A stretch of 39,069 bases of DNA from Frankiales bacterium (GCA_025464915.1 JAODNF010000479.1:1-39069); one strand, 5' to 3'. Shown: positions 8,233 through 29,914, numbered from the stretch's first letter. A program made the numbers and translations. Notes: generated by a model from the letters alone, not told the origin.

Positions 8233-8235
8233 CCG

Positions 8236-9741: not shown

Positions 9742-9806
9742 GTCGTGTTTCCTTCCCGTTCCCGCTGAGGATGCACTCTGCGGGGGCCGCTGTCTGCGGT
9801 TCGCGA

Positions 9807-11616: not shown

Positions 11617-12234
11617 TCAGGAGACGAGCTTGAGCGCGTTCTCGACGTAGTGCTCCAGGATCTGCTCCTTGGTGCGGGGCGCCTCCGGCGTCCACCACTC
11701 CGGCAGCCGGACGCCCATCGCGCCGATCGCCTTCGCGTCGAGGTAGGGGTCGGTGCTGTGGAACACGCCCATCCGGACCCCGCGCTCGATGACGTCGACG
11801 CTGATCTGCTCGGACTGGCTGCGGATCCCGATGATGGAGGCGTACTGGTCGGGGGTGAGCGCGCGCAGCTCGCGGTTGGTCAGGCGTGCCATCGAGGGGT
11901 AGTCCAGGTGCACGCGGACGTGGGCGGTGACGGTCGCTCTGAGCTGGTCGACGGGGTCGGACCCGGCGTCCATGAGGGCATCGCGCAGCGACTCGAAGTG
12001 CGAGCGATGCCCGATCAGCGCGAGGTCGTAGAGCAGCTCCTGCTTGCTGGGCACGTGGAAGTAGATGGCGCTGGGCTGCTGGCCGAGGGCGGTCGCGATG
12101 TCGCGGATCGAGACGGCGTGGTAGCCCTCCTGGCCGAACAGCTCGAGCGCGACCTCGTAGAGCTTGCGCTTCGCGGCGGACAGGTCCAGGCCGGGCGGCA
12201 GCAGGCCCTCGGTCGCGAGAACCTCAGCAGTCAT
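11617..12234 (-). CDS. TetR/AcrR-family transcriptional regulator (205 aa)
   Basis: 'KRKLYEVALELFGQEGYHAVSIRDIATALGQQPSAIYFHVPSKQELL' HTH. Lies 27 nt upstream of the GH-like gene and divergent from the fused ABC gene. Confidence 0.9.
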   Translation of the reverse strand: MTAEVLATEGLLPPGLDLSAAKRKLYEVALELFGQEGYHAVSIRDIATALGQQPSAIYFHVPSKQELLYDLALIGHRSHFESLRDALMDAGSDPVDQLRATVTAHVRVHLDYPSMARLTNRELRALTPDQYASIIGIRSQSEQISVDVIERGVRMGVFHSTDPYLDAKAIGAMGVRLPEWWTPEAPRTKEQILEHYVENALKLVS

Positions 12235-12246
12235 GGTCAGCAGCCT

Positions 12247-12256
12247 AACGATCGTT
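12247..12256. promoter_or_regulatory. Perfect 10-bp palindrome AACGATCGTT, candidate TetR operator
   Basis: Located 13-22 nt upstream of the TetR ATG (12234) in the divergent intergenic region. The half-site AACGAT recurs at 12357-12362, just before the ABC gene SD. Confidence 0.3.
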
Positions 12257-12308
12257 CGGTCAGTGCGCTAGGCAGACCTTCAACAGATGTGCGGCAAATC
12301 TCGCACGA

Positions 12309-12341: not shown

Positions 12342-12384
12342 TCGCCTCCCCAGCAGAACGATTGATCAGTAGGTGAGGCTGCGC

Positions 12385-15300
12385 ATGGCGTACCGCCGGC
12401 TCGGAAGCCGTCCGGAGCTGCTGCTCCTGGCGGCGCTGGTCGTCGGCTGTTCCCTGCTGCGCCGGGGCCTGCCGCTCGGGATCGTCGGGATCGGCGTCGT
12501 CACCGGCAGCGTGCTGGGGCTGCATGCGCTCGGCGTCGTGCTGCTCTACTCCCGCACCCGCATCCTGAGCTTCGCCCAGTTCGGGCTCGGCGCCGCGGCG
12601 GCGACCTTCTTCTACGTCTGGGTCTACTACAACCAGTGGGCGGTCCTGGGGCAGGGGATCTGCGGCTGCCTGGCTCCCGGCGGCGTGTCCATGTCGCGGC
12701 TGCAGCACAACCCGGACCCGTTCCGCGACTACCTGCAGGCACACCACCCGTGGGTGCTCGTAGCCAACGCGCTGTTCAGCGCGCTGCTCGGGGTCCTGCT
12801 CGCCATCGATACCGGTCGCCGCGTCCACAACGGCCTCGCGAAGAGCTTCGCCCGCGCCCCCGCGATCGTGCCGACCATCGCCACCCTCGCCTTCGCCGTC
12901 GTGCTGTCCGGTGTCACGAGCATTCTGACGCTGCGGAGCAAGTCGCTCTTCGGGTGGCACGCGTTCCACTGGTTCCCTTATGGATCGCGGCCGGGAACCG
13001 GTGAGGACGGCAAGCCGGCGCTTCCTGAGGGCGTCTTCCAGGTGCCGCACCACGGGTCGTGGGAGTTCGCGCTCGGTGGCGGCGCGCGGTTCCACCTGTA
13101 CGACGTACTGGCTGTCACCTGCGCCCTGCTGGCGCTGCTGCTGGTGACCCTGCGGTTCCGGGTAGGCCGCCGGGGCCTGGTCAGTCGGGCGACCGCCGCG
13201 AACCCCGAGCGCGCCGCCACCCTCGGCATCGACGTCTTCCGGGAGACGCGTGCGCCGTGGATGATGGCCGGGGCGCTGAGCGGGGTCGCGGGCATGCTCG
13301 CTGTCGCCGTCGCGGACTCGGCCCCGTTCGTCGGCATCGACATGAGCTCCCTCACGTTCGTGCTCGCCGCAGTAGTGCTCGCCCGCCTCACCAGCCCGGC
13401 CTGGGCCCTCGTCGCCTCGATGCTGCTCGGCGTCCTGGACCAGGCGATGTTCTGGAACTTCAGCTCCCACACGCAGTTCCAGGGGCTGCTGGTGGTCGTC
13501 ATCGGCGCCGCTCTCGTGATCCAGCGCGGGCGCAAGAGCCGCGCCGAGCAGGCTTCCGAGTCGGTCTTCACGACCGCGCCCGAGCCGCCCGCGGTGCCGG
13601 CAGCCATCCGCCGGGCCACCGGCGTGCACGGCGTGCTGCGCGGCAGCTCGATCGTGGTCGGTCTGGTGTTCCTGTCCTACCCCGTCCTCACCACGCCTGG
13701 GCAGCTGAGCCTCGGCATCGGCGCGGTGGCCTACATGATCCTCGGGCTGTCCGTCCTGGTGCTGTCCGGTTGGGCCGGCCAGGTCAGCCTCGGTCAGCTC
13801 GCCCTGGCCGCCGTCGGCGGCTACGTCGTCACCCTCGCCGGGGCGAGCTGGCACGTGCCGATGCCGCTCGCGCTCCTGCTCGGTGCCGCGGCGTCAGCAG
13901 CCGTAGCACCTCTGGTCGGCCTCCCGGCGCTGCGGCTCCCCGGGCCCTTCGTCGCGATCATGACATTGGCGTTCGCGCTGGCGGTTCCTGCCGTGCTGCT
14001 CAACCCCGACCTGCTGGGCGACGCCTTGCCCGCGACCCTGCCGCGGCCGGTGCTGCTCGGCCTCGACTTGGGCAGCGACCGCTACTTCTACTGGTTCTCG
14101 CTGCTCGTCCTGCTCGCGGCGCTGGCCGTCGTCACCGTCCTGCGCCGGTCCAGGTTGCGACGCGTGCTGATCGCCGCGCGCGACAACCCGCAGGCCGCGG
14201 CTGCGTTCGGCCTGGACATCACCCGGGTGCGGCTCGAGGCGTTCGCTGTCTCGGGGCTGCTCGCCGGGCTGGGTGGCGGGCTGCTCGCCTATGCCAACAG
14301 CGGTGTCGAAGCCGACGCCTTCTCCAGCATCAGCAGCGTCGTCGTGTTCCTCATCGTCGTGATCGGCGGGCTCTCGGCCGTCTCCGGGCCGGTGCTGGGC
14401 GCCGCGCTCTTCGGGCTCGTGTCCCTCGCCGGGTCGGCGTGGATAGGCGCCGTCCTCGGCCTCGGCACCCTGATCGTGCTGCCGTTCCGCCCGAGCGGGC
14501 TCGCTGGCCTCGTCACGGCGCTGCGCGACGCGGTCATCCGCGTGATCATGCACCTGCAGGGGCACGACCTCGTCAAGATCGCCGGGTCGCGGGTCGCCAT
14601 CGCCGATCGCGGTGCGCAGGCTCCCGTGGTGCCGGTCCGCTACCGGCTCGTCGGCGACGGCTACGCACCCGTCGAGGGGACGCGGCTGCGCTCGGTCGAC
14701 GGCGTCGCCCCCGTCACGGACGCCGTCCCCGTCGAGCTCGTCCAGGACGTCGAGTCCGCGCTCACGGCCATCAGCTGCCACCGGCTCGACGTGGCCTACG
14801 GCGGGGCTGTCGCCGTCGCGGGCGTCTCGCTCTCGGTAGCGCCCGGCGAGGTCCTCGCGATCGTCGGCCTCAACGGCGCGGGCAAGACCTCTCTGCTCCG
14901 CGCGCTCGCGGGTCTCGAGCCGGCGGCGCACGGCACCGTCGAGCTCGATGGCGACGACGTCACCCTCATCGATCCCGCGGAGCGTGCCAAGCGCGGGATC
15001 GCCTTCGTACCAGGCGGTTCCGCGGTTCTTGCGACTCTCACGGTGCGCGAGAACCTGCTCGTCGCCGGCGGCGACGACGACCAGATCGCGCAGCTGGCCG
15101 CGCGCTTCCCTGTCATCGGCACCCGACTCGGCACCGCCGCCGGCAACCTCTCCGGTGGTGAGCAGCAGGTCCTGGCGCTCGCCCAGGCCATGGGACGCCG
15201 GCCGCGCGTCCTCCTCGTCGACGAGCTCTCCCTCGGGCTGTCCCCGGAGGCCCTCGCGGCAGTGCTCGACAGCGTGATGGAGCTCGCCCGCGGAGGCACG

Positions 15301-16299
15301 GCGGTCGTGCTCGTCGAGCAGTCGATCAGCACCGCCATGTCCCTGGCGGACAGCGCGGTGTTCCTCGAGAGCGGCCGGGTCCGCTACCAGGGTCCCGCCC
15401 AGGCGCTGCGCGACCACCCCGAGCTGTTCGCCAGTGTCGCGTTCGGCGCCGGCGGTGGCTCGATCGGAGGCGGCTCCGAGCTCGCCCGCGCCCGCCGGGC
15501 CCAGCGCCTCGAGCGCGAACCGGTGATCTCGCTGCAGAACGTCACCGCCGCCTACGGCGAGGTGCGCGTCGTTGACGACGTCACGTTCGACGTGGCGGCC
15601 GGCGAGGTCGTCGGGATCCTCGGTCCCAACGGTGCCGGCAAGACCAGCCTGTTCGACTGCCTGTCGGGCACCCTGTCGATGGCCGCGGGCAGCGTGACGC
15701 TCCTCGGCAGCGACATCACGGGACTCGCGCCGCACAAGCGCGCTGAGCTCGGGCTCATGCGGTCCTTCCAGAGCGTCCGGCTCTTCCCCTCTCTCAGCGT
15801 GCGCGACTGCATCGCCGTCGCCTTCGAGACCCGGCTGAAGGTGAAGAGCGCGGCCTTCGCGGGGCTCTGGCTCCCGCCGGCCCGAGCCGAGGAGCGGCGG
15901 GTGGAGGAGCGCGTCAACGACCTGCTCGAGCTGCTGCAGCTGGAGAAGGTCGCCGACGAGGCCGTGGGTGCGCTGTCCCTCGGCACCCGCCGGATGGTCG
16001 ACCTCGCCTGCCAGCTGGCGGCCCGACCCAAGGTGCTGCTCCTCGACGAGCCGGCGGCCGGGCTGGCCGCCGGGGAGACCGAGCTGCTCGGCCCGCTGGT
16101 CGGCCGGATCAGCAACGACCTGGACTGCGCCGTCCTCATCATCGAGCACAACGTGCAGGTCCTCGCCTCGGTCGCCGACCGGCTCGTCGCCATGCGCGAC
16201 GGCGCCGTCATCGCCGAGGGCGCCCCCTCGACCGTCCTGTCCGAACCCGCCGTGCGCGGTGCCTACTTCGGTGCCCGCGACCTGCAGACCACCTCATGA
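12385..16299 (+). CDS. Single-polypeptide HAAT-family ABC transporter: LivH-like permease + LivM-like permease + LivF-like ATPase + LivG-like ATPase (1304 aa)
   Basis: One uninterrupted frame. Permease 1: 'ATAANPERAATLGIDVFRETRAPWMMAGALSGVAGML'. Permease 2: 'LSGWAGQVSLGQLALAAVGGY...AARDNPQAAAAFGLDITRVRLEAFAVSGLLAGLGG'. ATPase 1 (from ~14770): 'GLNGAGKTS', 'LSGGEQQVLALAQAM', 'VLLVDELSLGLSP', 'VLVEQS'. ATPase 2 (from ~15526): 'GPNGAGKTS', 'MRSFQSVRLFPSLSVRDCI', 'VLLLDEPAAGLA', 'IIEHNVQV'. ATG 12385 is preferred over GTG 12373 because of the SD. Confidence 0.9.
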   Translation: MAYRRLGSRPELLLLAALVVGCSLLRRGLPLGIVGIGVVTGSVLGLHALGVVLLYSRTRILSFAQFGLGAAAATFFYVWVYYNQWAVLGQGICGCLAPGGVSMSRLQHNPDPFRDYLQAHHPWVLVANALFSALLGVLLAIDTGRRVHNGLAKSFARAPAIVPTIATLAFAVVLSGVTSILTLRSKSLFGWHAFHWFPYGSRPGTGEDGKPALPEGVFQVPHHGSWEFALGGGARFHLYDVLAVTCALLALLLVTLRFRVGRRGLVSRATAANPERAATLGIDVFRETRAPWMMAGALSGVAGMLAVAVADSAPFVGIDMSSLTFVLAAVVLARLTSPAWALVASMLLGVLDQAMFWNFSSHTQFQGLLVVVIGAALVIQRGRKSRAEQASESVFTTAPEPPAVPAAIRRATGVHGVLRGSSIVVGLVFLSYPVLTTPGQLSLGIGAVAYMILGLSVLVLSGWAGQVSLGQLALAAVGGYVVTLAGASWHVPMPLALLLGAAASAAVAPLVGLPALRLPGPFVAIMTLAFALAVPAVLLNPDLLGDALPATLPRPVLLGLDLGSDRYFYWFSLLVLLAALAVVTVLRRSRLRRVLIAARDNPQAAAAFGLDITRVRLEAFAVSGLLAGLGGGLLAYANSGVEADAFSSISSVVVFLIVVIGGLSAVSGPVLGAALFGLVSLAGSAWIGAVLGLGTLIVLPFRPSGLAGLVTALRDAVIRVIMHLQGHDLVKIAGSRVAIADRGAQAPVVPVRYRLVGDGYAPVEGTRLRSVDGVAPVTDAVPVELVQDVESALTAISCHRLDVAYGGAVAVAGVSLSVAPGEVLAIVGLNGAGKTSLLRALAGLEPAAHGTVELDGDDVTLIDPAERAKRGIAFVPGGSAVLATLTVRENLLVAGGDDDQIAQLAARFPVIGTRLGTAAGNLSGGEQQVLALAQAMGRRPRVLLVDELSLGLSPEALAAVLDSVMELARGGTAVVLVEQSISTAMSLADSAVFLESGRVRYQGPAQALRDHPELFASVAFGAGGGSIGGGSELARARRAQRLEREPVISLQNVTAAYGEVRVVDDVTFDVAAGEVVGILGPNGAGKTSLFDCLSGTLSMAAGSVTLLGSDITGLAPHKRAELGLMRSFQSVRLFPSLSVRDCIAVAFETRLKVKSAAFAGLWLPPARAEERRVEERVNDLLELLQLEKVADEAVGALSLGTRRMVDLACQLAARPKVLLLDEPAAGLAAGETELLGPLVGRISNDLDCAVLIIEHNVQVLASVADRLVAMRDGAVIAEGAPSTVLSEPAVRGAYFGARDLQTTS

Positions 16300-17351
16300 G
16301 CCCGTCCACGAGAGGAACCCCCAAGAAGATGGCTACCCCCACGCTGAGCCGTCAGCGGAGCAAGCCGGCGAGCATGTCGGCGGCCGGTTTCCAGGAGGCG
16401 TTCGAGCGGATCGTCGACAACGCGTCCCTGGTCATCAAGGGCAAGGAGTCGGCGATCCGGCTGGTGCTGACGGCGATGATCGCTGACGGGCACTGCCTGC
16501 TGGAGGACATGCCCGGCACCGGCAAGACCATGATGGCGCGGGCGCTGTCGACGTCGATCAACGCCGAGTCCAACCGCATCCAGTGCACGCCGGACCTGCT
16601 GCCGTCGGACGTGACCGGTGCGCCGGTGCTGGACACCCGGACGGGAACGTTCACGTTCCGGCAGGGGCCGGTGTTCAGCAACGTGCTGCTGGTCGACGAG
16701 ATCAACCGCGCAACGCCCAAGACGCAGTCCGCGCTGCTGGAGGCCATGCAGGAGCGCAACGTCACGATCGACGGGCACACCCACAAGCTGCCCGTCCCGT
16801 TCCTGATCCTCGCGACCCAGAACCCGGTGGAGCAGGCCGGGACGTTCCCGCTGCCGGAGGCGCAGCTCGACCGGTTCCTGATCAAGCTGTCCGTCGGCTA
16901 CCCGGACCGGGAGGCCGAGGGCGAGCTGCTGGACGCGAACCGCTCGACGGAGGCGATCACCCGGCTCGGCGGGGTGTCGAGCACCGAGGAGGTGATCGCC
17001 ATGCAGCGGTTCTGCCAGGACGTGGAGCTGCCGGAGCCGGTGAAGATGTACATCGTCGACGTCTGCCAGGCGACCCGCACCGACCCGTCGCTGCTGATGG
17101 GTGCGAGCTCACGTGCCTCGCTCGCGCTGGTCAAGGCCTCCCGCGTCCGGGCCGCGAGCCAGGGCCGGGACGTGGTGCTCCCCGACGACGTCCGGGCCCT
17201 GCTGTCCGCGGTCATCGAGCACCGCCTGATCCTGACCCCCGACGCGCAGCTGCGCGACGAGACCGTGAGCAACGTGCTGGAGCGCATCCTCACCCGCATC
17301 CCCGTGCCGCTCGGCGTCGGCGACTCCGGCTCGCTGCGCAAGGTCACCTGA
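16296..17351 (+). CDS. MoxR-family AAA+ ATPase (351 aa)
   Basis: 'VIKGKESAIRLVLTAMIADGHCLLEDMPGTGKTMMARAL', 'IQCTPDLLPSDVTG', Walker B 'LLVDEINRATPKTQSALLEAMQE', 'LATQNPVEQAGTFPLPEAQLDRF'. The ATG overlaps the ABC stop (ATGA 16296-16299). Confidence 0.92.
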   Translation: MSPSTRGTPKKMATPTLSRQRSKPASMSAAGFQEAFERIVDNASLVIKGKESAIRLVLTAMIADGHCLLEDMPGTGKTMMARALSTSINAESNRIQCTPDLLPSDVTGAPVLDTRTGTFTFRQGPVFSNVLLVDEINRATPKTQSALLEAMQERNVTIDGHTHKLPVPFLILATQNPVEQAGTFPLPEAQLDRFLIKLSVGYPDREAEGELLDANRSTEAITRLGGVSSTEEVIAMQRFCQDVELPEPVKMYIVDVCQATRTDPSLLMGASSRASLALVKASRVRAASQGRDVVLPDDVRALLSAVIEHRLILTPDAQLRDETVSNVLERILTRIPVPLGVGDSGSLRKVT

Positions 17352-17356
17352 GACCC

Positions 17357-18622
17357 GTGCTCCGCACCCGCTCCTCGCGCGCGACGTCCGATCCGGAGGT
17401 CGCGGGCGTCGCCGCGCTCATCGAGCGGGTCACCGGGCTGACCGCCGCCGGTGCGGTGGTGCTCGTCGCGAGCCTGCTCGGCTACCTCGTGGCCAAGTCG
17501 CTCGGAGGGCGCGCGCTGTTCCTGCTCGTCTACGCAGGCATCCTGATGGTCGTCGCGGCGGCAGTGACCTCCCGCCGCAAGCGCCGGCTGAGCGCCGAGC
17601 GGTCGGCGCTGCCGACCCGGATGCGCGTCGGTCAGGTCGCGGAGGTCGAGGTCACCGTGCGCGCCCCCGGCCGGCTGCGTGCGTTCGTGGTGCAGGAGCA
17701 CCTGTCCTCGCTGCTCGCCGACCAGGTGCGGGTGCCGGTGCCGTCGGTCGGTGGGGACCAGGAGTTCGTGCACACCTACGCCATCCGGCCGACCCTGCGC
17801 GGGGTCTACCAGCTCGGCCCGCTCGCCGCGGAGTGGACCGACCCGTTCGGGCTGGCCCGGCACCAGCAGCCGCTGACCGACCCGGTCGACGTGATCGTGC
17901 ACCCGACGACGGACGCGATCTTCGACCGACCCCTGACCCGGATGTGGGAGGACCCGCCCTTCCGGCCGCCCGTGAGCACGCCCTGGCCGCAGGGCTTCGA
18001 GTTCTACGGGATGCGCGACTACGTGCCCGGTGACGACCCGCGCCGGATCGTCTGGACCGCTGCGGCCCGCACCGGGAAGTACCTCGTCCGCGAGTCCGAG
18101 CAGGGCATCACCGACCGCATCACGCTGGTCCTCGACAACGAGCGCAAGGCGCACAGCCCCGGCTACCCGTCGGAGACCTTCGAGCTGGCGATCCGTGCCG
18201 TCGCCTCGCTCGGCGCCTACAACATCAAGCAGGGCTACTCGGTGCGGCTCAGCTGCAACGAGCAGGTGCTGGCCCGTGAGCTGCGGGGCAGCAAGGCGCG
18301 GATCGCGATGCTCGACGAGCTGGCCCGCCTCGAGCTGACAGACGTCCCTGTCCACAACGCGATCGAGCGGGTCATCACCGAGCGCCGGGGCGACACCCAC
18401 ATGTGCTTCGTCTCGACCCGCTTCGACAGCAAGACGGCCTCCCGGATCCGGATGCTCACCGACAAGGGGATGTCGCTCGTCGTGGCCCTCGTGCAGTGGG
18501 AGGACGCAGATCCCAACGCGGCCCGCCGGGCACGCGAGATCGGGGCGCAGGTCGTCACGATCAGCCCCGGCCAGCAGCTGGAGCACGCCTTCGCCCACGC
18601 ACTCGGACTGGCGGTGCGCTGA
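17357..18622 (+). CDS. DUF58 (vWA-like) domain protein, MoxR partner (421 aa)
   Basis: Two N-terminal TM helices, then 'WTDPFGLARHQQ', 'FEFYGMRDYVPGDDPRRIVWTAAARTGKYLVRESEQ', 'ITLVLDNE'. GTG start 5 nt after the MoxR stop. The upstream part of the track ORF is out-of-frame overlap. Confidence 0.88.
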   Translation: MLRTRSSRATSDPEVAGVAALIERVTGLTAAGAVVLVASLLGYLVAKSLGGRALFLLVYAGILMVVAAAVTSRRKRRLSAERSALPTRMRVGQVAEVEVTVRAPGRLRAFVVQEHLSSLLADQVRVPVPSVGGDQEFVHTYAIRPTLRGVYQLGPLAAEWTDPFGLARHQQPLTDPVDVIVHPTTDAIFDRPLTRMWEDPPFRPPVSTPWPQGFEFYGMRDYVPGDDPRRIVWTAAARTGKYLVRESEQGITDRITLVLDNERKAHSPGYPSETFELAIRAVASLGAYNIKQGYSVRLSCNEQVLARELRGSKARIAMLDELARLELTDVPVHNAIERVITERRGDTHMCFVSTRFDSKTASRIRMLTDKGMSLVVALVQWEDADPNAARRAREIGAQVVTISPGQQLEHAFAHALGLAVR

Positions 18623-21465
18623 TGACCTCTCTGCTGGACCGTCCCGACGCCGACCTCGAGCTCGACCTCGACACCCCCGAGACCACGGAGGTGCCGGAGG
18701 ACGCTCTCGCCCCCGCGGCGCTCGGCCTCGCGGTCGTCTCGGGCGCACTCGCCAGCGCCGCTGCCGCCTGGATGGTCGGTGGCGTCTTCCGCGGGAACGA
18801 GGCCCGCTTCATCGGCTTCCTCGGCGTGCTCGTCGGCGCCGGCCTGGTCTACGCCGGCACCCGGCTGCGCAGCGCCGTCGCGCAGTACCTCGTGCTCCCC
18901 GTCGCGCTGCTCCTGGGTGCGGTGCTGATGAGCTCCGCGTCCGGTGCGGGCACCTCCAGCCTGCCGGCGCTGGTGAAGGACGCGGTCACGTCCTCGCAGG
19001 TGCTGCAGCCGCCGATCGACTTCGCCCCCGGCTGGCGGCTCGTGCTGCTCGTCGTGCTGGCGCTGCTCTCCTCCTCGGCGTGCGCCCTGGCGCTCTCCCT
19101 CAACCGGCCGCGCCTCGCGGTCGCGGTGCCGACGCCCCTGACGGTCGTGGCGGCCCTCGTGCAGCCCGGCTCGTCGGCCGTGACGACCAGCGCCGTCAGC
19201 GTCGGCCTGGTGATGATGGCCCTCGCCACGTCGTACGCCGCCGATGGCGTCGGTGACACGTTCGACGCCGGCTTCGAGGTGCGACGGCTGGCCCGCAGCC
19301 TGGTCGCCGGGGTGCTGCTCGTGACGGCGCTGGTCCTCGCCAGCAAGGTGTCGTTCCTGTTCCCCGACAAGGAGCAGCACCACGTCATCCCGCCGCGCCG
19401 GCCGCCCGCGAGCCCGCCCGGACCCGACGTCCCGCTCTACTCGGTCAAGGGGACGCTGACGGGTCCCCTGCGCGCGGGCGTCATCGACGTCTACGACAAC
19501 AAGGAGCGGGCCTGGCTGCTGCCGCCCGTCGACAACCAGCGGCTCCAGCGGCTGGCCCTGCCCGCCGACGTCCCCGCCGCACCGGCCGCGTTCGGGACGG
19601 CCACCTCGGTCACGGTCACCGTCGAGCAGGCCAAGGGCCACGCCCTGCCGAGCGTCGCGGGCGTGCGCCGCGTCGAGGGCAGCGCGACCGTCGACCTCGA
19701 CCCCCGCACCCAGGGGCTCTCGCTCCCGCAGCGCCCTGTCTTCACCGGCCTGCGCTACACCCTCACCTCCAACCCCGCGCCGACCGGCAAGCAGCTCAGC
19801 GACGTCACCGGCGTCGTCCCACCGGCGCTGAAGGACTTCCTCACCGCGCCCGCAGTCCCGCCGGCCGTGCAGGCGCTGCTCGACAAGGCGCCCGAGGGCA
19901 AGTACGCCCGGTTGCAGGCGCTGCGGACGGCCTTGTACCGCTCGTTCATCGCCTCCGGTCAGGGCAAGCCGACCGACGTCTCCGCGGACCGCGTCGTGGA
20001 GCTGCTCGGCGGCGGCACCGGCAACCCCTACGAGCTGACGGCCTCCGAGGCGCTGCTCGCCCGCTGGGCCGGGATCCCGTCGCGCATCGGGTTCGGCTAC
20101 TACAACGGGCAGCCGAGGGACGACGGCTCGGTGGAGTTCCGGCCGGCGAACGCCGCGACCTACCTCGAGGTCTACTTCGCGCCGTACGGCTGGGTGCCCG
20201 TCATCGGGACGCCGCCGCGGGCACAGCAGAGCCTGTCCAACAACCAGCGCAACAACGACCCGAACATCACGGCCTCGCCGGAGCTCGGGATCAGCATCTA
20301 CCTGCCGGTGCGCCAGGCGAGCCGGCTGCCGCTCTACGAGTACGCCCGCTACTTCTTGGTCCGCACGCTCCCCTTCCTCGCCGGCGCGGGGCTGCTGCTG
20401 CTGCTCTACCCCCTGGTGCTCAAGCGGGTCCGCCGGCGACGTCGTCGGGCCTGGGCGCAGCTGCACGGACCAGCCGGCGCCGTCGCAGCGGCCTACTGCG
20501 GGCTGCGCGACCACATGATCGACCTCGCCCTTCCCGGCCGAGGCCTGACCCCGCTGGAGCTGGTGGAGCTCGTGGACGAGGACGAGGAGCACGCCGAGCT
20601 CGCCTGGCTCGCCAGTCGTGGCCTGTGGGGCGACCTGCGCGGTCGGCTGACCGAGGCCGACGGCGACGAGGCGACCCGGCTCGCCGCATCCGTCGCGGAA
20701 CGGCTGAGCAAGGCGCAGCCGGAGACGGCCCGGCTGCTCGCCGCCGTCTCCCGGGCCAGCCTTCGGATGCCCTACAGCACCGAGCTGCCGAACGCCTGGT
20801 GGCAGCCCCGGCTGCCCCGGCCGCGGCTGCGCCTGCGCCTCGCCCGGTTGCGTCCCGCGACCTCGGCTGTCCTGGTGCTCGCCGTGCTGCTCGTCGGCGG
20901 TTGCTCCTCAGGAGGAGCCAAGAAGGCCGAGCCCCAGGTGCCGTTCCCGACCCGGCTCGCGCCGACCGCGGTGGCCGGCCTGCAGGTGCACGAGGAGGAC
21001 AAGGCGGCCGCGGCCTACGTCAAGGGAGCCGCCGACAAGAACGTCATCCTGTCCGAGGGCAAGGTCGTCTCGTTCAACAAGAACGGGCTCGTGCAGGCAG
21101 CCCTGCAGGTCGCGCAGCTCAAGAAGGGCTACATCAGCAGCGACAAGGACGTCGTGTCGGCGATCACCCGCAGCATCGGCGACACCATCCGCCGGCTGGG
21201 CCCCCAGGGCGGACACGAGCTGTTCGCGCTCGACGACGGCAGCCAGCGGATCTATGTCTGGTTCCCCACCGTGAAGTCGATGGCCCTGCTCGTCGTCCGC
21301 GCCCAGATCAACGCCGGAGCCGCCGAGGCCCTCGCTCGTGCGCTCATCGGCTACGGCGACGGCGGCGACATCGACGACACCGCCCTGTCGGCCGCGTTCA
21401 CCGCCAGCGAGAGCACCACTCCCGGCACACCCAGCACCGCACCCTCCGTGGAGCCCACCCCATGA
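18622..21465 (+). CDS. Transglutaminase-like (TgpA-type) polytopic membrane protein with DUF4129-like region and an extra C-terminal lipoprotein-like module (947 aa)
   Basis: N-terminal TM bundle. TGase-core flanks 'ARWAGIPSRIGFGYY' and 'LEVYFAPYGWVPVIGTP'. TM 'LPFLAGAGLLLLLYPLVL' followed by RRRRRR. Then an internal signal-peptide/lipobox-like 'RLRLARLRPATSAVLVLAVLLVGGCSSG'. The ATG at 18622 overlaps the DUF58 stop (TGATG). Confidence 0.8.
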   Translation: MTSLLDRPDADLELDLDTPETTEVPEDALAPAALGLAVVSGALASAAAAWMVGGVFRGNEARFIGFLGVLVGAGLVYAGTRLRSAVAQYLVLPVALLLGAVLMSSASGAGTSSLPALVKDAVTSSQVLQPPIDFAPGWRLVLLVVLALLSSSACALALSLNRPRLAVAVPTPLTVVAALVQPGSSAVTTSAVSVGLVMMALATSYAADGVGDTFDAGFEVRRLARSLVAGVLLVTALVLASKVSFLFPDKEQHHVIPPRRPPASPPGPDVPLYSVKGTLTGPLRAGVIDVYDNKERAWLLPPVDNQRLQRLALPADVPAAPAAFGTATSVTVTVEQAKGHALPSVAGVRRVEGSATVDLDPRTQGLSLPQRPVFTGLRYTLTSNPAPTGKQLSDVTGVVPPALKDFLTAPAVPPAVQALLDKAPEGKYARLQALRTALYRSFIASGQGKPTDVSADRVVELLGGGTGNPYELTASEALLARWAGIPSRIGFGYYNGQPRDDGSVEFRPANAATYLEVYFAPYGWVPVIGTPPRAQQSLSNNQRNNDPNITASPELGISIYLPVRQASRLPLYEYARYFLVRTLPFLAGAGLLLLLYPLVLKRVRRRRRRAWAQLHGPAGAVAAAYCGLRDHMIDLALPGRGLTPLELVELVDEDEEHAELAWLASRGLWGDLRGRLTEADGDEATRLAASVAERLSKAQPETARLLAAVSRASLRMPYSTELPNAWWQPRLPRPRLRLRLARLRPATSAVLVLAVLLVGGCSSGGAKKAEPQVPFPTRLAPTAVAGLQVHEEDKAAAAYVKGAADKNVILSEGKVVSFNKNGLVQAALQVAQLKKGYISSDKDVVSAITRSIGDTIRRLGPQGGHELFALDDGSQRIYVWFPTVKSMALLVVRAQINAGAAEALARALIGYGDGGDIDDTALSAAFTASESTTPGTPSTAPSVEPTP

Positions 21466-22430
21466 AGCGCACCCTGCTCGTCCCGCTCGCCGTCGCCACC
21501 CTCGTCAGCGGCTGCGGACCCACGACGCACCTGGACCTGAGCCTGCGCAGCGTCCCGGTCACGATCCCGCGGCTCGTCACGCCGGCTGTGACCCTGGTGC
21601 CGCCGGCGACGGGGCCCGTCCCGGTGAGCCTGCCGCCGCTGCCCCCTTCCGTGGTCCAGCTGCCGCAACTCCCGCCGCCCTCGGCCCCGCCCGTGCAGGT
21701 GCCGCCTCCGAAGCCGCCGGCCTGCCCGACCGCCGGTCAGTTCGACGTACCCGCGAAGCCCGCGAGCCCGCTCGTGACGAAGCCACCGGCGCCGGGGCGC
21801 TACACGATGAACGCGTTCGGGACCTACGCCAAGGGCGGCACGGTGAAGCCCCTCAACGGCAGCGTCGACGTGCTCGTCACGGCGCTCCCGAGCTCGACCA
21901 GCGCGGTCGGCCAGCAGATCGACGCCTGGCAGGTGAAGCGCACCGACGCGACCAGCGTCTCGGTCGAGGTCTACCAGCTCGTGCACGTGTCCTCCTCACC
22001 GGCGGCGACCGCGGCCGGCATCTACCTCGTCGGGCTGGCGTGGAAGGACCCGGTGCGCGGTGACCTCACCTTCCAGGCTGCCGGCAACGGCGTCCTGATC
22101 GTGCCGGACCCCGTGGCGATCGCGACCAGTGCGGCGCAGTACGCCGGGGCGGCCACCGACCCGAACAGCCTCACCACGCTCGCGATCGTCCGCAACGTCA
22201 CCGGCCGCAAGCGGGTCGATGCCTGCGGCCGGCTCATCGACACCTACACCGTGGCGATGACGGGAACGCTGGTCTCACCGGGGATGCAGCGCCAGCTCTC
22301 GTGGACGCAGCAGATCGCCACGGCGTACGGCGGCTCCGACGTCGAGGACAGCTTCACCCTGTCGTCGCCGGTCGAAGGCTTCACGTGGACCCGGACGCTG
22401 CGCAACACCGCTCTGCCGAAGGAGGTCTGA
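21462..22430 (+). CDS. Lipoprotein with Pro-rich linker, unknown function (322 aa)
   Basis: 'MKRTLLVPLAVATLVSGC' signal plus lipobox. 'PPLPPSVVQLPQLPPPSAPPVQVPPPKPP' linker. ATGA overlap with the upstream stop at 21462-21465. Confidence 0.8.
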   Translation: MKRTLLVPLAVATLVSGCGPTTHLDLSLRSVPVTIPRLVTPAVTLVPPATGPVPVSLPPLPPSVVQLPQLPPPSAPPVQVPPPKPPACPTAGQFDVPAKPASPLVTKPPAPGRYTMNAFGTYAKGGTVKPLNGSVDVLVTALPSSTSAVGQQIDAWQVKRTDATSVSVEVYQLVHVSSSPAATAAGIYLVGLAWKDPVRGDLTFQAAGNGVLIVPDPVAIATSAAQYAGAATDPNSLTTLAIVRNVTGRKRVDACGRLIDTYTVAMTGTLVSPGMQRQLSWTQQIATAYGGSDVEDSFTLSSPVEGFTWTRTLRNTALPKEV

Positions 22431-24169
22431 TGAGCACCCTTCGCCGTCCCGGCCGCACCCCGGGCGCCGTCAACCTGGCCGTGGCGCTCGGACTGCTCGT
22501 GCTGCTGCTGCCACTTCTGCTGCACGCCGCCACCGCGTCACCGCCCACGGCCGCCGAGTTCTCGCCCAACGCCAAGCAGGTCATCAAGAAGGCGCCGCCC
22601 GGCCAGGCCGCGGCGGTGAGCGGGACCGGCGCGAGCCCGACGCCCACCCCGAGCCCAGGCGCCTCGGCTCAGCCGTCGGCCGCCCCGTCCAGCCCGACAC
22701 CCTCCGCCGCGCCGCAAGCGGTCGCCGAGAACCTGCTCAAGCAGTGCGTCGGTCCGCCGCCGCTGCGGCAGATCGAGGACCCGCAGTCGCCGCCGTGCAT
22801 CGCCTACTGGAAGGGCGACAACGGGGGTGCGACCTCGAAAGGCGTGACCCGCGAGAACGTCTACATCGCGGTGCCCACGCCGGAGAACGCGCAGGCGCAG
22901 TACACCGCGCTGTTCAACTTCTTCAACAAGCGCTTCCAGTTCTACGGCCGCAAGCTCGTCCCCGAGTTCTGCTCGTCGACGGGCGGCGGGTCCGGCTCGT
23001 CGGACCAGGCGAACCAGAACAAGGATGCCGCCGACGCGGCGGCCGGCTGCAACAAGATGCCGAAGCCGTTCGCCTCGACGTTCTACCGGCAGAACAACGG
23101 CGCCTACTACATGCCGGCAATGGCCTGCCGCTACAAGACGATCGTCGTCGGGTCCTACTCGCCCTACGACAGCCGCTTCCTGAACCGGTGCGCTCCCTAC
23201 CAGTTCCAGTACCCGATGGAGGTCGACGAGGAGTTCGCCAACATCGGCGAGTGGACGTGCAACCGGCTCGCCGGCCGGCTGGCGCAGTGGGCCGACGGCA
23301 ACGACGGCTCGGCGCCGCCGAAGCGGCTCAGCTCGCTCAAGCGCAAGTTCGGCATCCTGCTCGAGCCGTTCACCGACGACGACCCGGTGCTGACCCGGTC
23401 GGCGCTGCAGCCGATCGTCTCCCGGCTGCATGCGTGCGGTGCCGACGTGCCGACCCAGGACGCCATCATCAACCCGGTCACGGGCGAGTTCGACGCCGCC
23501 TCGGCGCAGAACGCGATGCTGCAGCTGAAGAACGACGGCGTCACGACCGTCATCTGCATGTGCAACTTCTTCAGCTTCGGCACCCTGCAGCGCGGTGCGG
23601 CGACGAACGCCTTCACTCCCGAGTGGATCAGCTCGACGTTCGGCCTCAACGACGTGAACAGCTCGTTCCTGCTCGGCGCCGGTCCCGCGGCCGAGCTGGC
23701 GAACACCTTCGGCGTCACGTTCCAGCCGCGGATGGTCAACCCGCTGCTGAACCCCTACAACGTGGCCCTGGCCGAGGGGGACCCCAGCCAGTCGCCGGAC
23801 ACGGCCACCACCGGGGAGGCCAAGCTCGAGGTCTACCGCGCCCTGCTGCTGCTCGCCTCCGGCATCCAGATGGCCGGCCCGGACCTCAACGTCACGACCT
23901 TCCGCGACGGCCTGCGCCGCACGAAGTTCCCGAACCCGCTGACTGAGACCCACGCCGGCTTCGTGGGCTTCACCTCCGACGGCTACTCGATGACCAAGGA
24001 CGGCGCCGAGTGGTGGTGGAGCAACAGCGCGCAGGGGCCGTTCTCCGACAGCAGCGGCCACCCCGGCACGGTCTGCTACCTCAGCGGCGGCCGCCGCTAC
24101 TCCCTCGGGACCTGGCCTCGCGGTGCTGCCCCGTTCTTCGCCGGGTCGTGCGACTCCGGTGCCTCGTGA
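22430..24169 (+). CDS. Exported Cys-rich protein, distantly type-I periplasmic-binding-protein-like (579 aa)
   Basis: N-terminal anchor/signal 'AVNLAVALGLLVLLLPLLL' and a Pro/Ser/Thr/Ala linker. Alternating beta-alpha-like blocks 'NVYIAVPTP...', 'KFGILLEPF...', 'GVTTVICMCNFF'. 12 Cys in the mature part. GGAGG SD, and the ATG overlaps the upstream stop (TGATG 22428-22432). The fold call is an inference. Confidence 0.6.
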   Translation: MSTLRRPGRTPGAVNLAVALGLLVLLLPLLLHAATASPPTAAEFSPNAKQVIKKAPPGQAAAVSGTGASPTPTPSPGASAQPSAAPSSPTPSAAPQAVAENLLKQCVGPPPLRQIEDPQSPPCIAYWKGDNGGATSKGVTRENVYIAVPTPENAQAQYTALFNFFNKRFQFYGRKLVPEFCSSTGGGSGSSDQANQNKDAADAAAGCNKMPKPFASTFYRQNNGAYYMPAMACRYKTIVVGSYSPYDSRFLNRCAPYQFQYPMEVDEEFANIGEWTCNRLAGRLAQWADGNDGSAPPKRLSSLKRKFGILLEPFTDDDPVLTRSALQPIVSRLHACGADVPTQDAIINPVTGEFDAASAQNAMLQLKNDGVTTVICMCNFFSFGTLQRGAATNAFTPEWISSTFGLNDVNSSFLLGAGPAAELANTFGVTFQPRMVNPLLNPYNVALAEGDPSQSPDTATTGEAKLEVYRALLLLASGIQMAGPDLNVTTFRDGLRRTKFPNPLTETHAGFVGFTSDGYSMTKDGAEWWWSNSAQGPFSDSSGHPGTVCYLSGGRRYSLGTWPRGAAPFFAGSCDSGAS

Positions 24170-24182
24170 ACAGGAGACTGCC

Positions 24183-25385
24183 GTGACCGACGTGCGTGAG
24201 CTGGGGTTCGACCCGGCCCGGCTGGCCCGGCTCGACAAGCAGCTCGCGCGGCACGTCGACGCCGGCCGGCTCGCGGGCTGGCAGCTCGCCGTCACCCGGC
24301 ACGACCAGGTCGTGCACGACACGGTCTACGGCTGGCGCGACCGCGAGGCGGGACTGCCGGTCGAGAGCGACACCGTGTGGCGGATCGCCTCGATGACCAA
24401 GCCGATCACCAGCGTGGCCGCCATGACGCTGTGGGAGGAGGGCGCCTTCGACCTGAACGACCCGATCAGCCGGTGGCTACCGGAGTTCGAGGACATGCGC
24501 GTCTACGTCAAGGGCGTCGACCGCACGATGGTCACGATCCCTGCGGTCGAGCCCATCCGGGTGTGGCACCTGCTGTCCCACACGTCGGGCCTCACCGCCG
24601 GCTTCATGCGCGTCGGTCACGTCGATGCTCTCTACCGCGAGGCCGGCTACGAGTTCGCCGCGCCTCCGCAGAACCAGACTGTCGGCGACTGCGTCACCGA
24701 CTGGGCGGGCCTGCCGCTCGTCTTCCAGCCGGGCACGGCGTGGGGGTACGGCGTCAGTCACGACGTCCTCGGCCGGCTTCTCGAGATCTGGACCGGGCAG
24801 ACCCTCGACGTGGCCTTCCGCAACCGGGTGCTGGACCCGCTGGGCATGACGGACACGGTCTTCACCTGCGACCCGGGGCGGCGCGAGCGGCTCGCCTCTC
24901 TCTACCTGCCGGACGACGCCGACCAGGCGGTCCGCTCGCCGATGAGCGACCTGCCGATCGAGCCGACGATCCTGTCCGGCGGTGGCGGCCTGCTCAGCAC
25001 GTGTGCCGACTACGTGCGCTTCACGCGGATGCTCGCCGGCTCCGGCGAGCTCGACGGCACCCGGTTGCTCTCGCGCCGCACCGTCGACCTGATGCGCTCC
25101 AACCACCTGCCCGGCGACCTCGCTCAGCTGTCGTCCGGCGGCTTCGCCGAGACCACGCTCGACGGCATCGGCTTCGGCCTCGGGTTCGCCGTCGTGGTCG
25201 ACCCGCTGAAGGCGCACAGCGTCGCGAGCGTCGGCGAGTACAACTGGGGCGGCATCTTCAGCACCTGCTTCTGGGTCGACCCGGTCGAGGACCTGACGGC
25301 GGTCTTCATGACGCAGCTGATGCCGTCGAGCACCTTCCCGATCCGCGCGCAGCTCCGCCAGCTCGTCTACAGCGCCCTCGCCTGA
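24183..25385 (+). CDS. Serine hydrolase, beta-lactamase/transpeptidase-like fold (400 aa)
   Basis: SxxK motif 'IASMTKPITSVAAM', 'LLSHTSGL', 'WGYGVSHDVLGRLLE', 'YNWGGIFSTCFWVDP'. CAGGAG SD 6 nt before the GTG at 24183. Starts 13 nt after the upstream stop. Confidence 0.85.
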   Translation: MTDVRELGFDPARLARLDKQLARHVDAGRLAGWQLAVTRHDQVVHDTVYGWRDREAGLPVESDTVWRIASMTKPITSVAAMTLWEEGAFDLNDPISRWLPEFEDMRVYVKGVDRTMVTIPAVEPIRVWHLLSHTSGLTAGFMRVGHVDALYREAGYEFAAPPQNQTVGDCVTDWAGLPLVFQPGTAWGYGVSHDVLGRLLEIWTGQTLDVAFRNRVLDPLGMTDTVFTCDPGRRERLASLYLPDDADQAVRSPMSDLPIEPTILSGGGGLLSTCADYVRFTRMLAGSGELDGTRLLSRRTVDLMRSNHLPGDLAQLSSGGFAETTLDGIGFGLGFAVVVDPLKAHSVASVGEYNWGGIFSTCFWVDPVEDLTAVFMTQLMPSSTFPIRAQLRQLVYSALA

Positions 25386-25521
25386 CACGGGCACCGCCAC
25401 CACCGGGCTAGTTCGTTCGGGTCATCTTTCGATCTGCCTCGCGATGTCCATGGTCCGGGTGGGGCGCTTGTGGTGATCTTTGAGCGCTCGAGTCCCAGAC
25501 GCCCGATGAGGGGTGATCGCG

Positions 25522-27141
25522 GTGCGGATCCCAGGTCGTCGCCCCTGGCGGATCGTCGTGCTTTCCGCGGTCGCGATCGCATCAGGGCCGACGTTCGCGT
25601 CGGCCAGGCCCGCGCCGCCACCGACGCTGGCGCCGGTCATCGTGCAGGCGGGCAGTGCCGCGGCAGCACGCGCCGCGGTCCAGTCGGTCATCGCGCTGGC
25701 CGGCGGCACCGGGACGATCCCGTACGACCTGCCCCTGGTGAACGGCGTCCTCGCCAACCTCACCACCCCCGAGATCAGCCGTCTCACGTCGTACGTCGTG
25801 ACCCCGGACGCCGCCGTTCTTCCCGCCGGGAAGGTGGTCCCGGCGGCAGCGCCGCGACAGCTCGACAACGTCTTCCCGCAGGTCACCGGAGCGACCAGGA
25901 TCGTTGCCGGGGGCAACAGCGGCCAGGGCGTCGGCGTCGCCGTGCTGGACACCGGTGTCGCGCCGCTCGCGGACTTCGCAGGTCGGCTGCGCACGGGTGT
26001 CGACCTGTCGGGGGAGGGCAACGCCCAGCTCGACAGCTACGGCCACGGCACCTTCGTCGCCGGGCTGGTCGCCGGCAACGGGGCGTCCAGCAACGGGACG
26101 TACGTCGGTGAGGCACCGGCAGCGACGGTCGTACCCGTGAAGGTCGCGGGCAAGTCGGGCAGCACGACGCTCTCGACGGTCATCCGCGGCCTGCAGTGGG
26201 TCAAGGACAACACGACCGACGGCATCCGCGTCGTCAACATGTCCCTCGGCGCGATCCCGACGACGTCCACCGCCCTCAACCCGCTCGACCAGGCCGTCGA
26301 GGTCATGTGGCGGTCCGGCTTCGTGGTCGTCACATCGGCCGGCAACAACGGCCCGAACAAGGGCACCATCACCTCGCCCGGTGACGACCCGCTGGTCATC
26401 ACCGTCGGTGCGCTCGACGACAAGGACACGGTCGCGACGGCGGACGACGCGGTGCCGTCTTTCAGCAGCCAGGGACCGACGCCGTGGGACGGCTGGTGGA
26501 AGCCCGACCTGCTGGCACCCGGGAAGTCGGTCGTCAGCGTCACGTCGACGACGTCGGTCGTGTGGAACGCCAACAAGACCGCCCGCGTCGGCACGAAGAG
26601 CTTCGTCGGGTCGGGCACGTCCTTCGCGGCCGCCATCACCAGCGGTGCGGCAGCGATGCTGCTGCACGAGAACCCGCTCGCGACGCCGGACAACGTCAAG
26701 GCCGCGCTGCTCACGACCACCAACGCCGGACCGAGCCCGCCGCAGTCGCCGTTCGTCCAGGGACACGGCGTCCTCGATGTCGGACGCGCCGTCGACGAAC
26801 CGCTGATCAGCCTCGCACAAAGCGTGAGCGCGATCGTCCCGCCGGCCGCTCTCGGGCTCCCGGTCTCGTTGGTGACGCGCCAGGCAGTCTCGACATGGGC
26901 GACGGTCAGTGCGGCCGACCAGCCGTTCTACGCGGGGCTCTACCCGTTCCCGTACTCCGGTCCCGCGACCACCGCCACCGACGGCGGCTCCCCTCTGTTC
27001 CAGTCGTCGGCGTGGAACAGCAGCGCGTGGAACTCGTCGGCGTGGAACAGCAGCGCGTGGAACTCGTCCGCCTGGAACTCGAGCGCCTGGAACAGCAGTG
27101 CCTGGAACTCGAGCGCCTGGAACTCGAGCGCCTGGAACTGA
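25522..27141 (+). CDS. Secreted S8 (subtilisin-family) serine peptidase with a C-terminal (SSAWN)x9 tail (539 aa)
   Basis: Triad motifs 'VAVLDTGV' (Asp), 'YGHGTFVAGLVAG' (His), 'GSGTSFAAAITSGAAAML' (Ser). Signal 'RIVVLSAVAIASGPTFASA'. GTG 25522 is preferred (GAGGGG SD 8-9 nt upstream); GTG 25513 is the alternative. Confidence 0.9.
   Translation: MRIPGRRPWRIVVLSAVAIASGPTFASARPAPPPTLAPVIVQAGSAAAARAAVQSVIALAGGTGTIPYDLPLVNGVLANLTTPEISRLTSYVVTPDAAVLPAGKVVPAAAPRQLDNVFPQVTGATRIVAGGNSGQGVGVAVLDTGVAPLADFAGRLRTGVDLSGEGNAQLDSYGHGTFVAGLVAGNGASSNGTYVGEAPAATVVPVKVAGKSGSTTLSTVIRGLQWVKDNTTDGIRVVNMSLGAIPTTSTALNPLDQAVEVMWRSGFVVVTSAGNNGPNKGTITSPGDDPLVITVGALDDKDTVATADDAVPSFSSQGPTPWDGWWKPDLLAPGKSVVSVTSTTSVVWNANKTARVGTKSFVGSGTSFAAAITSGAAAMLLHENPLATPDNVKAALLTTTNAGPSPPQSPFVQGHGVLDVGRAVDEPLISLAQSVSAIVPPAALGLPVSLVTRQAVSTWATVSAADQPFYAGLYPFPYSGPATTATDGGSPLFQSSAWNSSAWNSSAWNSSAWNSSAWNSSAWNSSAWNSSAWNSSAWN
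27004..27138 (+). repeat. Nine tandem 15-bp units encoding SSAWN, running to the stop codon of the S8 peptidase
   Basis: Units 1-4 alternate tcgtcggcgtggaac / agcagcgcgtggaac (Ala = GCG). Units 5-9 use GCC for Ala (tcgtccgcctggaac, tcgagcgcctggaac, agcagtgcctggaac, tcgagcgcctggaac x2). The peptide is invariant while codons vary. Confidence 0.98.
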
Positions 27142-29826: not shown

Positions 29827-29914
29827 TCCGGTGTGGAAGACCCCCTGTGGCGGGGCTCACATTGTGGGGAAGAGGCACACAGGAGGCACAGCGCCGTTGC
29901 CGAAGCCCTCACGC

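Follow-up and report, generated by a model that had tools for sequence, protein, structure and literature searches.

The window analysed here, 39,069 nt from a Frankiales bacterium (GCA_025464915.1 JAODNF010000479.1:1-39069; G+C ~72%), carries at 12385-25385 an operon in which a Liv-type ATP-binding cassette (ABC) importer is joined to a module of MoxR, DUF58, TgpA-like protein and lipoprotein, followed by a membrane-tethered substrate-binding protein (SBP) and a hydrolase. We propose that one conserved uptake machine is encoded by these seven genes and a divergent tetR gene: a scaffold that spans the membrane, is non-catalytic and is powered by MoxR would dock or remodel tethered SBPs at the Liv-type importer. 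We put the probability of this reading at about one half. It is built on the gene content, the folds of the products, the loss of a catalytic triad, the conserved linkage of the genes and the co-occurrence of an SBP motif with the module, and from these we infer physical contacts between the proteins, the role of ATP, the substrate and co-transcription. A preliminary description of this stretch had already suggested a single envelope machine with chaperone-assisted assembly of an exoprotein. The genes do behave as a conserved unit and that idea comes close to our best explanation, whereas the accompanying idea of ligand processing did not survive as far as it would involve the transglutaminase-like protein.

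Seven open reading frames were found on the + strand between 12385 and 25385, with the codon-position G+C bias of real genes of this genome. They and the two protein regions central to our argument are as follows.

12385-16299, +, single-chain Liv/HAAT-type ABC transporter of 1304 aa (Pfam BPD_transp_2 twice, ABC_tran twice, BCA_ABC_TP_C)
16296-17351, +, MoxR-type AAA+ ATPase, cytoplasmic (AAA_3, 2.9e-62, 208.8 bits; AAA_lid_2, 68.7 bits)
17357-18622, +, DUF58 (vWA-like) protein with N-terminal membrane hairpin and cytoplasmic domain (DUF58, 1.1e-8)
18622-21465, +, TgpA-like polytopic membrane protein (Transglut_core, 40.4 bits, cutoff 23; TgpA_N, 28.4 bits, just under the cutoff of 30)
19891-20202, +, transglutaminase-like core of the TgpA-like protein, residues 424-527, triad lost
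21462-22430, +, lipoprotein of 322 aa (lipobox LVSGC, Pro-rich stalk, all-beta domain)
22430-24169, +, membrane-tethered SBP of 579 aa with the LivJ/type I periplasmic-binding fold (AlphaFold2 and Foldseek)
22538-22606, +, juxtamembrane signature of the SBP, residues 37-59, SPPTAAEFSPNAKQVIKKAPPGQ (consensus PPPxxAEFAPQAxEQIxxAPxxQ)
24183-25385, +, beta-lactamase-fold serine hydrolase, family VIII esterase-like (PF00144, 8.8e-67, 226 bits)

The conservation of this arrangement was first of all apparent from the SBP side. When the SBP family profile was run against GTDB, with a single genome for each species, 72 loci (designated here by L numbers) were obtained. All belong to metagenome-assembled genomes (MAGs), and their labels comprise Frankiales, Mycobacteriales, Acidimicrobiales, Nitriliruptoria, Dormibacterota, Chloroflexota and a few further taxa; SBP homologues are almost all metagenomic. 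The window proteins were mapped onto all loci by tblastn. Genes for the SBP, ABC, MoxR, DUF58 and TgpA-like proteins were found together in the loci of 28 MAGs with Frankiales, Mycobacteriales, Acidimicrobiales, Nitriliruptoria or Dormibacterota labels. In six further MAGs the ABC permease was seen and MoxR was not within the fetched sequence; the L030 locus, for example, ends 155 nt past the ABC gene. Among the clade loci in which the ABC gene end is present with 1.5 kb or more of downstream sequence, MoxR was located directly 3' of the ABC ATPase domains, on the same strand and after a short gap, in 35/35. Conservation of the ABC-MoxR junction across Actinomycetota was the check proposed in the preliminary description, and the junction is indeed retained despite changes in gene order, also under Dormibacterota labels. 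Confinement to a few close relatives, which that description had named as the outcome that would speak against it, was not observed, since the linkage extends far beyond them. Gene calls in five relatives gave spacings mostly between -4 and +42 nt.

Across the loci the order ABC, MoxR, DUF58, TgpA-like, lipoprotein is invariant. The position of the SBP gene varies: it is downstream in the window, L001 and L002, upstream on the same strand in L003, L016 and many others, and divergent in L027, L028, L068 and L078. Sampling from the permease side recovered homologues at 34-40% identity that carry the full module (L078 and L079). It also recovered four fused Liv transporters at 33-37% identity (L076, L077, L080 and L081) that have a large SBP gene upstream and no MoxR, DUF58 or TgpA-like gene. 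The module therefore marks a large subclade and not all fused Liv systems.

The tight packing of seven same-strand genes, on which the preliminary description had laid stress, was found again with all genes and all six junctions.

16296-16299, +, ABC/MoxR junction, ATGA overlap
17352-17356, +, MoxR/DUF58 junction, 5-nt gap, then GTG start at 17357
18620-18624, +, DUF58/TgpA-like junction, TGATG
21462-21465, +, TgpA-like/lipoprotein junction, ATGA
22428-22432, +, lipoprotein/SBP junction, TGATG
24183, +, GTG start of the hydrolase gene at the SBP/hydrolase junction, after a 13-nt gap with GGAG

Packing is as tight elsewhere in the genome, and the next three downstream genes are also only 3-4 nt apart. 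Because dense packing is normal here, the overlaps alone prove little, and the evidence that the genes form a unit is their conserved arrangement in other genomes.

Next we examined the TgpA-like protein, which consists of about seven helices, a 336-residue loop with the transglutaminase-like domain, helix 8, a 139-residue domain (601-739), helix 9 and a 189-residue tail. Alignment with the solved TgpA domain 6G49 showed that the catalytic Cys-His-Asp triad is lost, with Pro in place of Cys, Ala in place of His and Ile in place of Asp. The same replacements were found in 26/26 homologues compared, in which conservation of the adjoining residues remains high, and the loop contains no invariant Cys or His. 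These replacements indicate that the domain is catalytically dead, a member of the fold family and not of the enzyme. As all three residues are replaced in every homologue compared, neither a transglutaminase nor a cysteine protease is possible, and we rejected the processing of peptides or cell-wall-derived ligands by this protein. That the module is kept although its enzyme is dead speaks, for this clade at least, in favour of a scaffolding or mechanical role over catalysis. For transglutaminase-like domains that are inactive, peptide binding has been proposed (PMC3495828).

The topology of the TgpA-like protein was deduced from its charged residues. The mean number of Lys+Arg across 24 homologues is 8.3 in the 20 residues after helix 8 and 4.8 in the 20 residues before helix 9. 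According to the positive-inside rule, the 601-739 domain would thus be cytoplasmic, and the loop with the dead domain, like the tail, would be outside. In P. aeruginosa TgpA, the annotation assigns the transglutaminase domain to the periplasm (PMC3507681). Many residues of the 601-739 domain are invariant, whereas the C-terminal tail has none that are and is variable. Relaxed Pfam scans of the cytoplasmic and C-terminal domains gave nothing usable and no DUF4129. Helix 9 ends in LLVGGC-SSGG (residues 740-758 and on; 20839-20895), which resembles an internal lipoprotein signal peptide, and the outside C-terminal domain may once have been encoded by a separate lipoprotein gene that was later fused.

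Of the two proteins encoded ahead of it, MoxR has complete Walker A (GTGKT) and Walker B (VDEINR) motifs and no hydrophobic segment. The DUF58 gene begins 5 nt 3' of MoxR, a pairing that is kept in related loci, and its product has hydrophobic segments in residues 18-71 followed by a basic stretch. The signature FEFYGMRxYxxGDDxRRIxW of the DUF58 protein is conserved in 31 homologues, and no NCBIfam model matches it.

The lipoprotein matches neither Pfam, relaxed scans included, nor NCBIfam. Its AlphaFold2 model (pLDDT 87) is all-beta and fold comparison gave only weak YmcC/LolA-like matches; the all-beta domain is a new family. With an iterated hidden Markov model (HMM), built from domain envelopes only, the lipoprotein gene was found directly 3' of the TgpA-like gene in 22/22 loci with sequence there. 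A 370-aa protein of L075 belongs to the family by HMM, though it is apparently unrelated by BLASTP. A 600-aa protein encoded between lipoprotein and SBP in the same locus is not an SBP homologue.

The last component that carries our argument is the SBP. The AlphaFold2 model of the window SBP, made from 34 homologues, has a pLDDT of 84, and of >90 over the globular part. Its best Foldseek matches are LivJ/K-like (4mpt, 4kv7, 4n0q and 3td9; E ~1e-10), and related receptor domains including those of mGluR, GABA-B and ANP receptors follow lower down. The protein itself has no Pfam match, with nothing usable from relaxed scans either, and no NCBIfam model, its family profile found nothing among PDB sequences, so that only fold comparison gave matches, and an exact-sequence look-up found it not on record. 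Some of its homologues match PF13458 (Peripla_BP_6), and hhalign revealed an N-terminal GGNGGAT..GVT...YGRK signature common to the SBP and the conventional Peripla_BP_6 protein of the window. The SBP belongs to a new divergent subfamily and is likely the cognate receptor of the transporter. What had been called a binding-protein-like exoprotein thus has a true type I periplasmic-binding fold, with the refinement that it is anchored by a single hydrophobic helix (residues 13-31). Cleavage by signal peptidase is unlikely because a proline directly follows this helix in most paralogues.

Behind the helix lies the juxtamembrane signature, in which P38, A42, F44, P46, I52 and P56 are invariant in an alignment with members down to 39% identity. 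The N-terminal layout is the same in all of the ~110 SBP copies of the fetched loci. It consists of a basic tail and a single helix, then a proline run and the motif in its extended form (AEFAPQAxEQIxxAPxxQxSxFG; AAEFSPNAKQVIKKAPPGQ in the window), and lastly a low-complexity linker and RVRRCVGDPPRQxEDPQSPPC, with which the fold starts. The motif is near-invariant among paralogues that are ~30% identical overall. A profile search of 1.84 billion representatives gave 1,117 clusters at 50% identity (E <=1e-30), a lower bound for the family; 126/146 best representatives contain the strict motif pattern and the remainder are mostly variants or N-terminally truncated. The SBPs of the four module-less fused Liv transporters do not contain the motif. 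The same is true for an in-genome control, since a second Liv system in the window has no MoxR module and its SBP is without the juxtamembrane motif. Tandem SBP arrays reach 11 copies in L063 (21.6 kb), 8 in L064 and 7 in L052, and were also seen in L042, L061 and L072. Within the fetched loci, the MAG CAZCSK ('uncultured Actinomycetes') has at least 44 copies and CAZLKN at least 15. All array copies retain the motif while the SBP body diverges, which fits binding to a shared single-copy partner.

The transporter has all four of its domains in a single chain. The LivH-like and LivM-like permease halves (PF02653, 2.7e-46, two matched stretches; ~19 hydrophobic segments in residues 1-691) are followed by a LivF/UrtE-like and then a LivG-like ATPase (PF00005 twice and BCA_ABC_TP_C; NCBIfam matches UrtE, LivG and LivF). 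The motifs GLNGAGKTS, LSGGEQQ and LLVDE were found in the first ATPase domain, and GPNGAGKTS, LSLGTRR and LLLDE in the second; both ATPase domains and the permease domains look intact and importer-typical. We did not call a urea transporter, as the UrtE match clears its cutoff only by summing the two ATPase domains. Full fusion, which the preliminary description had noted, is not defining, since most relatives use two proteins. In most of the distant members, LivHM (733-790 aa) is separate from a second protein that combines an MFS_1 domain of ~12 helices with the two ATPase domains. This fusion of an MFS_1 part (major facilitator superfamily, MFS) ahead of Liv-type ATPase domains was found in ~24 loci, and is absent from the clade of the window and from L003 and L016. 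It is a new transporter architecture in most relatives, and we know of no described MFS-ABC ATPase fusion. Examples are given below.

13866-16918 of L033, MFS fused to two ATPase domains
12199-15024 of L078, MFS fused to two ATPase domains
5389-8502 of L079, MFS fused to two ATPase domains

Among the module-less transporters, those of L076 and L081 are accompanied by a gene (13705-14709 and 7429-8397, respectively) that overlaps the ABC stop codon; its product, 322-334 aa long and rich in Pro and Ala, has a hydrophobic helix at the C-terminus and may be a different accessory protein.

The hydrolase encoded by the last gene contains an SMTK motif (SxxK nucleophile) and WGG. It has no signal peptide and no hydrophobic N-terminal segment, and is probably a cytoplasmic, family VIII-type enzyme. 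Of the three proteins earlier said to be exported, the lipoprotein and the SBP are, and the beta-lactamase-fold protein is not. An exported beta-lactamase or penicillin-binding protein was considered and discarded, as the secretion signal is missing. The best NCBIfam match is the methyl acetate hydrolase AcmB (4e-49). With AcmB and the family VIII carboxylesterases the protein has the beta-lactamase fold and SxxK in common, but the AcmB score of 167 bits is far below the cutoff of 550 and the enzymes are not equivalent; all named beta-lactamase models of NCBIfam are likewise far below their cutoffs. The hydrolase is confined to the close clade. In L002, SBP-hydrolase gene pairs were duplicated together, which points to catabolic import.

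From these data we propose the following mechanism. The Liv/HAAT-type importer would receive its substrate from the dedicated LivJ-fold SBP, which would be held on the cell surface by its uncleaved N-terminal membrane helix and a flexible stalk. MoxR, DUF58, the dead TgpA-like protein and the lipoprotein would form a complex spanning the membrane, with MoxR and the DUF58 domain in the cytoplasm and the 601-739 domain linking both to the dead domain outside. There the transglutaminase-like domain, with the lipoprotein, may bind the juxtamembrane peptide of the SBP. We propose this contact because the dead domain is conserved and predicted to be outside, and the SBP peptide is the only other clade-specific extracellular feature. 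ATP hydrolysis by MoxR would drive assembly, positioning or exchange of SBPs at the transporter. In the clade of the window, the imported compound would probably be a small ester or amide that the hydrolase splits in the cytoplasm, and expression would be gated by TetR.

Several points weigh against this mechanism. All members come from uncultured MAGs, and contacts, transcription and transport are deduced from sequence. The match between motif and module depends on only four outgroup loci and one control in the window, and could be due to common descent; the partner of the motif might also be the permease instead. Within the sequence fetched, many SBP paralogues are located at a distance from any module. 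In L017 (17854-18924) and L040 (11678-12736), a homologue of the lipoprotein was found close to SBP genes although the fetched flanks contain no TgpA-like gene; it may represent an additional copy or belong to a module that was rearranged. For the topology, which we deduced from charge, Zhang and Aravind predict a cytoplasmic loop for the family and thus in related proteins (PMC3495828); a loop that is cytoplasmic here would be unable to reach the SBP motif. Finally, as the hydrolase is missing from most of the clade, what it suggests about the substrate is limited to close relatives.

The strongest rival, unlikely in our view, is that the module is an assembly or quality-control chaperone for the unusually large transporter itself (fused LivHM with two ATPase domains, or LivHM plus the MFS-ATPase protein), with the SBP motif contacting the permease. 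MoxR always directly follows the ATPase domains, often with overlapping codons, the clade has odd transporter architectures such as the MFS-ATPase fusion, and MoxR-family ATPases are generally seen as maturation or remodelling chaperones (PMC12067865). However, the four equally large fused Liv transporters manage without the module, and a transporter chaperone leaves its extracellular half (transglutaminase-like loop, C-terminal domain and lipoprotein) and the clade-specific SBP motif unexplained. It is improbable that the importer and a generic MoxR triad are independent and merely share a promoter, their linkage being a frozen accident of one lineage. Here one can point to the dense packing of the genome, to examples that all come from related soil lineages, and to the generic triad, which is widespread and mobile (PMC3495828). 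Yet the linkage has persisted although the SBP gene was rearranged three times or more, the transporter genes were split and fused, the MFS part was gained or lost, and SBP identity fell to ~31% across phylum-level labels. A chance association would also leave the clade-specific dead triad, dedicated lipoprotein and SBP motif without a reason.

Two further explanations give the module another task and are more doubtful still. The generic three-gene MoxR-vWA-YebA/TgpA operon has been modelled as a membrane-proximal, ATP-dependent degradation or turnover system (PMC3495828), which in our case would remove or recycle SBPs or transporter subunits. An S8 subtilase gene located just downstream (25513-27141) and conserved in L006 would suit such a role. 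We consider this very improbable, because the supposed peptidase, the transglutaminase-like domain, lacks Cys, His and Asp in every member, and the S8 gene is kept only in the closest relatives and lies beyond a terminator-like site. The least probable explanation is a sensor or mechanotransducer, in which SBPs sense a ligand and the ABC and MoxR ATPases relay conformational signals. The type I binding fold is also used by receptors, a PAS-GGDEF-EAL gene lies downstream, and FtsEX shows that proteins outside the cell can be under ABC-driven control (PMC12067865). Against this stand the intact importer domains and the catabolic indication from the co-duplicated SBP-hydrolase pairs; moreover, in the relatives examined the genes that come after the operon differ by locus, and the GGDEF-EAL gene was not seen at that position.

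When compared with known systems, the parts are of known kinds; new are their invariant combination, an enzyme that is dead, the families of the lipoprotein and of the motif-bearing SBP, and the MFS-ATPase fusion. LivJ/K-LivHMGF and UrtABCDE, which we take to be ABC importers of the HAAT family (TCDB 3.A.1.4), likewise have two BPD_transp_2 domains, LivF/UrtE-like and LivG-like ATPases and a receptor with the type I periplasmic-binding fold. In contrast to these, the four transporter domains are here in one 1304-aa chain and four extra genes lie between transporter and receptor. The receptor is also ~200 aa longer, helix-tethered, equipped with the motif and eight conserved cysteines, and below Pfam detection. 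MoxR operons of the Bat/aerotolerance type encode classical vWA (BatA/BatB) and TPR proteins downstream of MoxR-DUF58, whereas no vWA or TPR Pfam match was found in any operon gene here.

A further resemblance is to PA2875-PA2874-tgpA of P. aeruginosa (MoxR-DUF58(vWA)-TgpA/YebA), which has the same three families in the same order and the transglutaminase-like domain between late helices. Co-transcription of these three genes has been shown (PMC3507681), and a strict three-gene MoxR-vWA-TgpA association was described (PMC3495828). P. aeruginosa TgpA retains its catalytic triad, has transglutaminase activity in vitro, and its gene is essential (PMC3507681, Milani et al.). By contrast, the triad residues are lost in all members studied here, an ABC importer always precedes and a dedicated lipoprotein follows, and the TgpA-like protein is extended by a ninth helix and a C-terminal domain that is predicted outside. 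The bifidobacterial PFNA cluster (pkb2-fn3-MoxR-DUF58-tgm) joins the same actinobacterial core to the gene of a secreted or surface protein (PMC8430577), but no Ser/Thr kinase or FN3 domain is encoded in our operon or its flanking genes, and the partners are an ABC importer, an SBP and a lipoprotein. The literature on ABC transporters with MoxR, DUF58 or transglutaminase-like proteins yielded, within an incomplete coverage, only PFNA, mycobacterial moxR1 and unrelated papers, and one seeming DUF58 match proved to be DUF5819; the earlier remark that no known description links the triad to an ABC importer holds to that extent.

A functional analogy is offered by the Sulfolobus bindosome, where surface display of SBPs bearing a special N-terminal signal needs a dedicated ATPase-containing assembly system, Bas (PMC3047682). 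Bas is type IV pilus-like and acts on class III signal peptides; its components are unrelated to those described here, where the signature follows the membrane helix instead of preceding it. We tentatively entertain the possibility that the MoxR-DUF58-TgpA-like-lipoprotein module is a bacterial counterpart of this archaeal system. It would be a transmembrane platform driven by the AAA+ ATPase, the dead transglutaminase-like domain of which grips the juxtamembrane peptide of tethered SBPs, and would load, hold or swap these SBPs, of which a genome can have dozens of paralogues, at a single Liv importer. If true, the widespread MoxR-DUF58-TgpA operon would thereby have its first defined class of clients. 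Bacteria and archaea commonly possess that operon, whose role has so far been a matter of conjecture (PMC3495828); here it is locked to a specific transporter and a peptide-tagged family of surface proteins, and the target of the triad becomes testable through binding and reconstitution. The SBP family itself, large, unannotated and present in dozens of copies in some soil MAGs, bears on nutrient scavenging by uncultured Actinomycetota and Dormibacterota.

Candidate regulatory features were found at both ends of the operon.

11617-12234, -, TetR-family regulator (TetR_N and TetR_C_24, Pfam match), divergent from the operon
12241-12265, operator-like box 1, a direct repeat with the palindrome AACGATCGTT, adjoining the tetR start
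12351-12375, operator-like box 2, 72% copy of box 1, directly upstream of the Shine-Dalgarno sequence and start of the ABC gene
25403-25420, +, terminator-like hairpin 18 nt past the last stop codon, consensus match only

Homologues of the TetR gene also adjoin the system in L003, L012 and L016. The 150-nt region between tetR and the ABC gene thus contains two copies of a 25-nt box with the palindrome, and the core pattern of the box has two matches in the whole window, both intergenic, against 0.12 expected by chance. Terminator-like sites numbered 4 in the scanned region against 3.0 expected. A sigma-70 promoter scan gave zero sites and is uninformative at this G+C content, and an Rfam scan of the whole window revealed no riboswitch or leader upstream of the operon.

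The second Liv-type system next door is conventional and occupies 5526-9810 on the - strand.

5526-6317, -, LivG-like ATPase
6304-8232, -, fused LivHM permease
8236-9810, -, lipoprotein SBP of the Peripla_BP_6 family
9807-10430, -, second TetR gene

Between both TetR genes lies a gene for a 365-aa protein (10492-11589, -) with a hydrophobic N-terminus, a Pro-rich stretch and no family match. On the other side of the operon, the S8 subtilase gene (+) has a homologue of 82% identity at the same position in L006 (14234-15853); the more distant relatives that were examined did not show it behind the operon. It is followed by the PAS-GGDEF-EAL gene (27145-29826) and, at 29831-31453 (+), by a gene whose product of 540 aa matches neither Pfam nor NCBIfam and, with a lipobox (LAGCG) and a long linker of Gly, Ser and Thr, has a layout like that of lipoprotein binding proteins. 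A defence system was considered as well and rejected, as PADLOC gave generic P-loop matches only and no specific system model. The sole Rfam match in the window is a tRNA gene at 38991-39063 (-). Lastly, a 3.8-kb sequence deposited as 'Bryobacterales bacterium' (Acidobacteriota; L015, JAOAPP010000814.1) is 100% identical to 19300-23113 of the window; it was probably mis-binned, the other close relatives all being labelled Frankiales or Mycobacteriales.

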